Assembly: GCF_030013205.1 (NCBI RefSeq)
Contig: NZ_CP122648.1
Length of the DNA: 64,000 bases
Origin: Escherichia coli
GTDB taxonomy: Bacteria > Pseudomonadota > Gammaproteobacteria > Enterobacterales > Enterobacteriaceae
Reading direction: 5' to 3' (one strand)
Shown here: piece after piece, positions 19,801 to 22,800 of the stretch
Layout: each line of letters begins with the position of its first letter
Position numbering within the stretch: the stretch's first letter is position 1
Made by a program: the position numbers

Positions 19801-22800
19801 GACGTTGTGATCGACGACGCCAGCGCCGACCCGCTGCGCTACAACCTTGCTGCCATGATTGCGCGCTTCAACGAAACGGGCCGCAGCCAGGTGCTGGCAA
19901 AACGTATGCCGGGTGACCTCTCTGAATACTCCGTCATTCAGACCAAAGAGCCGCTGGACCGTGAAGGCAAAGTCAGCCGCATTGTTGAATTCATCGAAAA
20001 ACCGGATCAACCGCAGACGCTGGACTCAGACATCATGGCCGTTGGTCGCTATGTGCTTTCTGCCGATATTTGGCCTGAACTGGAGCGTACTCAACCTGGA
20101 GCATGGGGACGTATTCAGTTGACTGATGCCATTGCTGAGTTGGCAAAAAAACAAGCAGTTGACGCAATGCTGATGACTGGGGACAGTTACGACTGCGGAA
20201 AGAAAATGGGTTATATGCAAGCGTTTGTGAAGTATGGGCTGCGTAACCTGAAAGAAGGGGCGAAGTTCCGTAAAGGGATTGAGAAGCTGTTAAGCGAATA
20301 ATGAAATCTGACCGGATGTAACGGTTGATAAGAAAATTATAACGGCAGTGAAGATTCGTGGCGAAAGTAATTTGTTGCGAATATTCCTGCCGTTGTTTTA
20401 TATAAACAATCAGAATAACAACGAGTTAGCAATAGGATTTTAGTCAAAGTTTTCCAGGATTTTCCTTGTTTCCAGAGCGGATTGGTAAGACAATTAGCGT
20501 TTGAGTTTTTCGAGTTAAGCGCGAGTGGGTAACGCTCGTCACATCGTAGGCATGCATGCAGTGCTCTGGTAGCTGTAAAGCCAGGGGCGGTAGCGTGCAT
20601 TAATACCTCTATTAATCAACCTAAGAGCCGCTTATTTCACAGCATGCTCTGAAGTAATATGGAATAATAAAGTGAAGATACTTGTTACTGGTGGTGCAGG
20701 ATTTATTGGTTCTGCTGTAGTTCGTCACATTATAAATAATACGCAAGATAGTGTTGTTAATGTCGATAAATTAACGTACGCCGGAAACCTGGAATCACTT
20801 GCTGATGTTTCTGATTCTGAACGCTATGTTTTTGAACATGCGGATATTTGCGATGCAGCTGCAATGGCACGGATTTTTGCTCAGCATCAGCCAGATGCAG
20901 TAATGCACCTGGCTGCTGAAAGCCATGTTGACCGTTCAATTACAGGTCCTGCGGCATTTATTGAAACCAATATTGTTGGTACATATGTCCTTTTGGAAGC
21001 CGCTCGCAATTACTGGTCTGCTCTTGATAGCGACAAGAAAACTAGCTTCCGTTTTCATCATATTTCTACTGACGAAGTCTATGGTGATTTGCCTCATCCA
21101 GATGAAGTAAATAATAACGAAGAATTACCCTTATTTACTGAGACGACAGCTTACGCGCCAAGCAGTCCTTATTCCGCATCAAAAGCATCCAGCGATCATT
21201 TAGTTCGCGCGTGGAAACGTACCTATGGTTTACCGACCATTGTGACTAACTGTTCGAATAACTACGGTCCTTATCACTTTCCGGAAAAATTGATTCCACT
21301 AGTAATTCTTAATGCTCTGGAAGGTAAGGCATTACCTATTTATGGTAAAGGGGATCAAATTCGTGACTGGCTGTATGTTGAAGATCATGCGCGTGCGTTA
21401 TATACCGTCGTAACCGAAGGTAAAGCGGGTGAAACTTATAACATTGGTGGACACAACGAAAAGAAAAACATCGATGTAGTGCTCACTATTTGTGATTTGT
21501 TGGATGAGATTGTCCCGAAAGAGAAATCTTACCGCGAGCAAATTACTTATGTTACCGATCGTCCGGGACACGATCGCCGTTATGCGATTGATGCTGAGAA
21601 GATTGGTCGCGAATTGGGTTGGAAACCACAGGAAACGTTTGAGAGCGGGATTCGGAAGACAGTGGAATGGTACCTGTCCAATACAAAATGGGTTGATAAT
21701 GTGAAAAGTGGTGCCTATCAATCGTGGATTGAACAGAACTATGAGGGCCGCCAGTAATGAATATCCTCCTTTTCGGCAAAACAGGGCAGGTAGGTTGGGA
21801 ACTACAGCGTGCGCTGGCACCTTTGGGTAATTTGATTGCTCTTGATGTTCACTCTACTGATTATTGTGGTGATTTTAGTAACCCAGAAGGTGTGGCTGAA
21901 ACCGTCAAAAAAATTCGTCCTGACGTTATTGTTAATGCTGCTGCTCATACCGCGGTAGATAAGGCTGAGTCAGAACCCGAATTTGCACAATTACTCAATG
22001 CGACAAGTGTTGAAGCGATTGCAAAAGCGGCTAATGAAGTTGGGGCTTGGGTAATTCATTACTCAACTGACTACGTATTCCCTGGAAATGGCGACACGCC
22101 ATGGCTGGAGACGGATGCAACCGCACCGCTAAATGTTTACGGTGAAACCAAGTTAGCCGGAGAAAAAGCGTTACAGGAACATTGCGCGAAGCATCTTATT
22201 TTCCGGACCAGCTGGGTATATGCAGGTAAAGGAAACAATTTTGCCAAGACAATGTTACGTCTGGCAAAAGAGCGCGAAGAATTAGCTGTCATTAACGATC
22301 AGTTTGGTGCACCAACAGGTGCTGAACTGCTGGCTGATTGTACGGCACATGCAATTCGTATGGCACTGAATAAACCAGAAGTCGCAGGCTTGTACCATCT
22401 GGTAGCCACTGGTACCACAACCTGGCACGATTATGCTGCGCTGGTTTTTGAAGAGGCACGAAAAGCAGGTATTCCCCTTGCACTCAACAAGCTCAACGCA
22501 GTACCAACAACAGCCTATCCAACACCAGCTCGTCGTCCACATAACTCTCGCCTTAATACAGAAAAATTTCAGCAAAATTTTGCGCTTGTTTTGCCTGACT
22601 GGCAGGTTGGCGTGAAACGAATGCTCAACGAATTATTTACGACTACAGCAATTTAATAGTTTTTGCATCTTGTTCGTGATGATGGAGCAAGATGAATTAA
22701 AAGGAATGATGAAATGAAAACGCGTAAAGGTATTATTTTAGCGGGTGGTTCTGGTACTCGTCTTTATCCTGTGACTATGGCAGTCAGTAAACAGCTGTTA

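Follow-up and report, generated by a model that had tools for sequence, protein, structure and literature searches.

The requirements of ops for RfaH recruitment have been described base by base. G4, G5, A7 and G8 are essential, while C3 and T6 have about 3-fold effects, the C3:G8 pair closes a hairpin in the non-template DNA, and T11-G12 set the pause (Zuber et al. 2018; PMC5995543). ChIP in the strain CFT073 found RfaH only at the leader ops of eight H-NS-bound operons including the O-antigen operon, and found none at 22 ops-like sites inside genes (Hustmyer et al. 2022; PMC9765446). Belogurov et al. used the ops element of rfbB as a reporter that responds to RfaH, so the K-12 counterpart of the element described below is an experimental RfaH target.

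The window analysed here is a stretch of 64,000 nt of Escherichia coli DNA. It is 99.997% identical to the chromosome of the porcine E. coli ETEC4071, differing by one mismatch and one indel, and about 99.97% identical to the O139:H1 strain W13-16. It covers the wca-galF-rfb-gnd-ugd-his region of a porcine O139 strain of E. coli. The colanic acid genes, from wzc to wcaM (1-19233), are followed by galF (19408-20301), a 370-nt galF-rfbB spacer and the genes rfbB (start at 20672), rfbD, rfbA and rfbC, the last ending at 24127.

A second spacer between rfbC and wzy (24128-24453; 326 nt, 25% GC) leads to the serogroup genes, which are the O139 wzy, a GT2 gene, the O139 wzx, two GT4 genes and a last GT2 gene at 29956-30750. 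Downstream of the cluster come gnd, ugd, wzzB and the his operon. The O139 cluster is rare, being present in only 19 of 5426 complete E. coli genomes.

The 39 bp at 20559-20597 on the + strand, CAGTGCTCTGGTAGCTGTAAAGCCAGGGGCGGTAGCGTG, are a JUMPstart element as judged from Rfam, its identity with K-12 rfbB and its conservation as an island across serogroups. In an Rfam scan of the whole window, the JUMPstart model RF01707 matches exactly these bases over its full length (model positions 1-38 of 38) with a score of 60 bits against a gathering threshold of 35. The E-value is 2.6e-11 for the whole window and 1.7e-13 locally. In the window element, the loop is one base longer than in the model consensus.

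The 3′ end of the element is the ops site GGCGGTAGCGTG at 20586-20597 on the non-template (coding) strand, +. The ops pattern GGCGGTAGNNTG has this one exact match across both strands of the 64 kb. The element also holds a direct repeat of GGTAGC, whose first copy is at 20568-20573 and whose second copy at 20589-20594 falls inside ops. The ops site lies 285 nt past the galF stop and ends 74 nt before rfbB, with which the O139 cluster begins.

The first-pass annotation had claimed a consensus JUMPstart with ops at these positions, upstream of an O-antigen operon spanning 20672-30750. The full-length RF01707 match agrees with its JUMPstart coordinates to the base, and the motif search returned its ops site as the exact and sole match. 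The site does stand upstream of the operon, and the span is the one found in the RefSeq annotation of near-identical genomes.

A short motif can arise by chance, and the match at 20559-20597 could in principle be a coincidence or a vestige with no present function. The exact ops 12-mer occurs 0.09 times on average in shuffled windows and at least once in 8 of 100 shuffles, so that the 12-mer alone is weak evidence. The 39-base match with its conservation, however, takes JUMPstart far beyond chance. The covariance-model match (E 2.6e-11 in the window), the use of the same sequence in K-12 experiments and its presence at the same position in more than 5000 E. coli genomes effectively refute the coincidence or vestige, whose probability we put close to nil.

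Ops-like sites look mildly enriched in the window, with 7 found against 2.9 expected. Six of them have one mismatch and lie in wcaA (antisense), wcaI, wcaM, hisH (antisense), yeeA and pduO. We rejected all six as RfaH sites, as they are in coding regions and each has a functionally important base altered.

The site at 20586-20597, in turn, retains every ops base needed for the RfaH contact (G4, G5, T6 and A7), the C3:G8 pair and T11-G12, the required motif being GGCGGTAGnnTG. It lies on the coding strand in non-coding DNA, after a terminator-like hairpin of galF. The rfaH gene itself is outside the window; it was found at 80% coverage or more in 5425 of the 5426 complete E. coli genomes and is almost certainly carried by O139 strains.

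From its sequence and context, 20559-20597 is very probably the JUMPstart/ops element of the E. coli O139 O-antigen (rfb) operon that loads RfaH, and no feature of the sequence speaks against this. By analogy with the known systems, we infer that the O-antigen operon of this O139 strain is RfaH-dependent.

A long hairpin followed by a U-rich stretch, terminator-like in the RNA fold, stands after galF at 20339-20396 on the + strand, with the arms AACGGCAG and CTGCCGTT. Its folding energy is -29.9 kcal/mol (z -6.45), none of 200 shuffles folds as well, and the hairpin is conserved in other serogroups. This terminator-like hairpin would separate galF from the O-antigen transcription unit, so the O-antigen genes probably need their own promoter. 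Weak matches to miRNA families at 20327-20402 were dismissed as merely this hairpin.

A candidate O-antigen promoter is present at 20467-20495 on the + strand, with the -35 hexamer TTGTTT at 20467-20472, a 17-nt spacer and the -10 hexamer GACAAT at 20490-20495. It was not called by a consensus promoter scan of 19300-33800, which placed nothing on the + strand of the spacer and whose total number of calls did not exceed that in shuffles. The candidate agrees with the consensus at 7 of 12 positions, under the scanner threshold. As the consensus scan gave none in the spacer, the promoter is deduced from the conservation across serogroups.

In the alignment, the block CTTGTTTC...TTGGTAAGA(C/T)AAT keeps the same spacing in five other galF-linked O-antigen loci while its flanks have diverged. 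These five loci have unrelated first genes, namely GT4 (two loci), a tviB-like gene, O113 wzx and O157 GT2. The block TTGTTT-17-GACAAT is also identical in K-12.

The candidate promoter is 64 nt upstream of JUMPstart and predicts a transcription start near 20502 and a leader of about 170 nt. Our literature search for a mapped rfb transcription start gave nothing usable. Marolda and Valvano are said to have reported in 1998 a leader of 173 nt for O7. By its sequence, any transcript that starts between the galF terminator-like hairpin and 20559 would have JUMPstart in its untranslated leader. Both the MFE and centroid folds of the leader also contain a first stem-loop at 20521-20540 on the + strand (GCGAGTG...CGCTCGT). 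The stability of this stem-loop is no greater than in shuffles, and the fold energy of the whole leader is no better than theirs, either (z -0.52).

The O139 O-antigen operon comprises ten genes over 10.1 kb at 20672-30750 on the + strand. All are on the same strand with intergenic gaps of -14 to +57 nt, the single exception being the 326-nt rfbC-wzy spacer. The terminator scan found no convincing + strand intrinsic terminator between JUMPstart and 32279. The first convincing one is located downstream, after gnd at 32279-32305 (+), and consists of an 11-bp stem, 7 of whose pairs are G-C, with a T run after it. The gene packing and this distance to the first convincing terminator fit a single transcription unit.

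The composition changes along the operon. The rml genes have a GC content of 39-46% and the genes starting with wzy one of 29-33%, six genes being at about 30%. Its first gene rfbB has a GTG start and a weak SD of -3.3 kcal/mol. The operon is a long, foreign-looking envelope operon with a weak ribosome-binding site at its first gene, as RfaH-dependent operons are. The best reading of the sequence is that the O139 operon is probably one long RfaH-dependent unit. An internal promoter could exist in 24128-24453, and the distal genes may not rely on the upstream promoter alone.

The proposed course of events would start with transcription from TTGTTT-17-GACAAT near 20502, which puts JUMPstart in the leader. 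The steps from the pause onward are those established for ops and RfaH in general. RNA polymerase would pause with U11 of ops at 20596, and the exposed non-template GGCGGTAGCGTG would fold into a small hairpin closed by C3:G8, from which RfaH would read G4, G5, T6 and A7. RfaH would then open, bind the polymerase and exclude NusG.

Staying bound until the operon end, RfaH would suppress H-NS roadblocks, pausing and termination by Rho. With its KOW domain refolded, it would also bring a ribosome to the leader, as the first gene has a poor ribosome-binding site. In this way, RfaH presumably lets the polymerase travel the roughly 10 kb that separate the start of rfbB from the end of the wbbL-like gene (20672-30750). 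The crossed stretch would include 24454-30750, foreign-looking DNA of about 30% GC. It is on low-GC foreign DNA of this kind that RfaH is believed to counteract Rho and H-NS.

The conservation of the element can be read in two ways. BLAST of 20530-20625 gave matches in 5130 of the 5426 complete genomes. In divergent contexts, the match shrinks to positions 30-68 of the query, which correspond precisely to 20559-20597. Many alignments stop at 20597/20598, where ops has its 3′ end. JUMPstart is both a conserved island and the edge of a hypervariable cassette. It persists upstream of O-antigen clusters whose first genes are unrelated, and also in front of a group 1 capsule locus.

Such sharp edges could mean that JUMPstart is kept chiefly as a recombination junction for the exchange of serogroup cassettes at the 5′ edge of the cluster, with regulation being secondary here. 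The exact stop of homology at 20597/20598 in many genomes and the match of only 39 bases in the most divergent contexts are what that role would leave behind. However, a functional conserved block beside hypervariable DNA would be expected to leave the same pattern as a by-product. A junction role does not explain why the bases contacted by RfaH are so strictly conserved, why JUMPstart occurs ahead of unlinked operons (the group 1 capsule here and, according to the literature, waaQ and hly) or why the hairpin covaries in distant genera. We thus regard it as very unlikely to be the main reason for the conservation, and RfaH loading remains the preferred account.

The JUMPstart stem-loop at 20566-20584 on the + strand, present in the Rfam consensus structure and in the fold, consists of CTGGT (20566-20570), a 9-nt loop (20571-20579) and GCCAG (20580-20584). 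A single spacer base (20585) separates its 3′ foot from ops. The fold of the JUMPstart RNA is no more stable than those of shuffles (z -0.03). As thermodynamics alone lent no support for the structure, we turned to covariation. The stem is invariant across the E. coli loci compared, so no covariation test is possible within E. coli.

Hence, one genome per species was scanned for GGGGCGGTAGCGTG, a pattern that specifies no stem base except the closing G, giving 121 sites in 120 loci that were grouped by taxon only. About half of the scan matches are chance matches in unrelated phyla and served as the control. A perfect 5-bp hairpin ending one base before ops was found at 42 of the 59 gammaproteobacterial sites versus 11 of the 62 elsewhere (Fisher p 2e-9). 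When the register is shifted by -10 to -1, only 1-9 of the 59 gammaproteobacterial sites form such a hairpin.

The stem pairs are of 23 types, for example CTGGT/GCCAG, CAGGT/GCCTG, TTGGA/TCCAG, CAGGA/TCCTG, CAAGA/TCTTG, CACTG/CGGTG and TGATG/CATCG. This covariation reproduces the published stem-loop (Weinberg et al. 2010; PMC2864571). The 5-bp RNA hairpin just before ops is a part of the element that selection has kept.

The hairpin raises the alternative that the element acts mainly as RNA, with the JUMPstart hairpin rather than the ops DNA alone being the regulatory part. It could be a pause-stabilizing or anti-backtracking hairpin, or belong to a short leader RNA of the RirA kind, by which RfaH would be bound and titrated. 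RirA is a 73-nt fragment of the waaQ leader that contains JUMPstart and ops and binds RfaH (PMC5736990). Besides the covariation in 23 stem types with its loss at shifted registers and the conserved stem-loop in Rfam and Weinberg et al. 2010, the geometry speaks for an RNA role. The 3′ foot is 12 nt from the RNA end at the U11 pause, and the hairpin is outside, and upstream of, the transcription bubble at that pause, so it can act only as nascent RNA.

Several points weigh against this alternative, which we consider unlikely overall. The structural and biochemical studies of ops used scaffolds lacking the hairpin, and on such minimal scaffolds ops alone suffices for pausing and RfaH loading in vitro (PMC5995543, PMC11001881). 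Ops alone also works in reporters. The ops-paused complex is described as biochemically distinct from the hairpin-stabilized pauses (PMC11001881), and the JUMPstart hairpin is thermodynamically unremarkable. Moreover, an RNA action would complement the DNA mechanism rather than replace it. With RfaH loading at the ops DNA as the preferred mechanism, we suggest only tentatively, and with low confidence, that the covarying hairpin might be a working part of the loading device. It would then act against backtracking or prolong the pause for the scarce RfaH, or the rfb leader RNA would titrate RfaH as RirA might.

The last gene of the operon had been described in the first-pass annotation as a frameshifted wbbL, and the frameshift proves real. 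At the poly-A tract at 30580-30586 (+), the window has A7 where the intact allele has A8. By comparison with O139:H1 W13-16, A7 shifts the frame to a stop at 30595-30597 and yields 213 aa, while the A8 allele encodes 264 aa. The name wbbL is justified only as that of a homologue, the intact 264-aa O139 protein being 41.6% identical over 255 aa (E 9e-64) to the K-12 WbbL, whose query sequence was rebuilt across its IS5 insertion.

The 19 complete genomes with the cluster split into 10 with A7 and 9 with A8, the two most divergent copies being among the latter. In a large protein collection, 230 contigs encode the 264-aa form and 29 the 213-aa form, some of these in assemblies from read archives. 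These allele counts and the contigs with the 213-aa form indicate that the frameshift is probably a real sublineage allele and not only a long-read error. With the A7 allele of this wbbL-like rhamnosyltransferase, part of the O139 lineage could be rough or phase-variable.

The JUMPstart/ops here is a textbook element in a textbook place, already known, and nothing new is added to the biology of either. A confirmed RfaH loading site ahead of the O139 operon is useful for annotation, and it predicts that O-antigen expression in the porcine edema-disease/ETEC strains would be RfaH-dependent. Two threads may be worth following up, the role of the covarying hairpin by ops and the poly-A frameshift allele of the wbbL-like gene.

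The closest known system is the rfb (O16) operon of K-12 MG1655. Its JUMPstart is identical to that of the window in all 39 bases and occupies the same position between galF and rfbB, in a spacer that is identical at 353 of 372 positions (95%). The likeness extends to the candidate promoter block, the first leader hairpin and the first four genes rfbBDAC. The two operons differ in the middle, with the O139 wzy, GT2, wzx and two GT4 genes in the window versus the O16 rfbX, glf and wbbH-K in K-12. The wbbL-type last gene is inactivated in both, by the poly-A frameshift in the window and by the IS5 insertion in K-12.

From the family described by RF01707 (Hobbs & Reeves 1994; Weinberg et al. 2010), the window element has no difference of substance, sharing the stem-loop and the ops at the 3′ end. 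The waaQ (RirA), hlyCABD, kps, F tra and group 1 capsule wzi operons likewise have the 12-nt ops core in the 5′ leader (PMC5995543, PMC9765446, PMC5736990). The same RfaH loading mechanism is proposed for those operons, while the operons downstream are different. In a group 1 capsule locus of our comparison (L007), the ops copy has C at position 12 (GGCGGTAGCGTC).

The hairpin permits one further comparison. As deduced from the sequence, the JUMPstart hairpin would have a 5-bp stem and an 8-9-nt loop, and at the pause some 12 nt would lie between its foot and the RNA 3′ end. The his pause hairpin has a like geometry, also with a 5-bp stem, an 8-9-nt loop and a foot about 12 nt from the RNA 3′ end. 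The ops pause, however, is reported to be pre-translocated and backtrack-prone, unlike the his-type pause, and biochemically distinct from the hairpin pauses (PMC11001881).

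In many E. coli genomes, the homology between serogroups stops exactly at 20597/20598, which is the 3′ end of the ops site (20586-20597, plus strand) within the 39-bp JUMPstart element. In the most divergent contexts, the match is limited to the element itself, 20559-20597. JUMPstart, 74 nt upstream of rfbB, therefore marks the boundary of recombination on the 5′ side of the O-antigen cassette.

Downstream of galF, a long and highly stable hairpin at 20339-20396 (-29.9 kcal/mol, z -6.45) is followed by a U-rich stretch and is kept in other serogroups. It is likely the galF terminator, and a simple terminator scan gave no match at these positions because its stem has bulges.

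Inside the operon, the GC content falls from about 43% to about 30% at the rfbC-wzy spacer (24128-24453), which is 326 nt long with 25% GC. Within this spacer, a GC-rich hairpin, GCCGCCTTTTAAAAGGCGGT, stands alone at 24159-24178, and the hexamer TTGACA is present at 24353-24358. The spacer might mark a recombination junction or carry an internal promoter.

The last gene of the operon, encoding a WbbL-like rhamnosyltransferase (29956-30750), has a poly-A tract at 30580-30586. The A7 allele of the window causes a frameshift and leaves 213 aa, while A8 gives the intact protein of 264 aa. The A7 tract occurs in 10 of the 19 complete genomes with the O139 cluster, and by contigs the intact form was counted 230 times and the truncated one 29 times. 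The A7 allele possibly reflects strand slippage or phase variation, or these may be rough variants.

Another run differs in wzx, where position 27069 is T in the window and G in both the near-identical porcine strain ETEC4071 and the O139:H1 strain W13-16, so the T run is lengthened (TATTTTTTTG versus TATTGTTTTG). The sole indel against ETEC4071 lies at about 55832 in the pdu operon, within its pduS-like 4Fe-4S gene (55152-56497, minus strand); two overlapping ORFs stand there in place of one, and the ETEC4071 annotation calls this gene 'frameshifted'.

Additional Rfam matches scoring above the gathering score are algC RNA in the cpsB-cpsG spacer (10906-10955), the His operon leader (43319-43442, minus strand), STnc240 (46181-46255) and STnc490 adjoining an IS200 transposase gene (47841-47964).

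YCTG was not found directly 3′ of the window's ops, where GCATTA stands. A JUMPstart copy in E. coli EF7-18-58 (L007) precedes wzi, ahead of the group 1 capsule locus, and its ops, GGCGGTAGCGTC, has C instead of G at pause position 12. In many gammaproteobacteria, including Marinobacter, Pseudomonas, Halomonas and Superficieibacter, YCTG directly follows ops (GGCGGTAGCGTG CCTGAT...), as at L015, L046, L053, L075, L076, L121, L125 and other ops-site loci from the one-genome-per-species scan.
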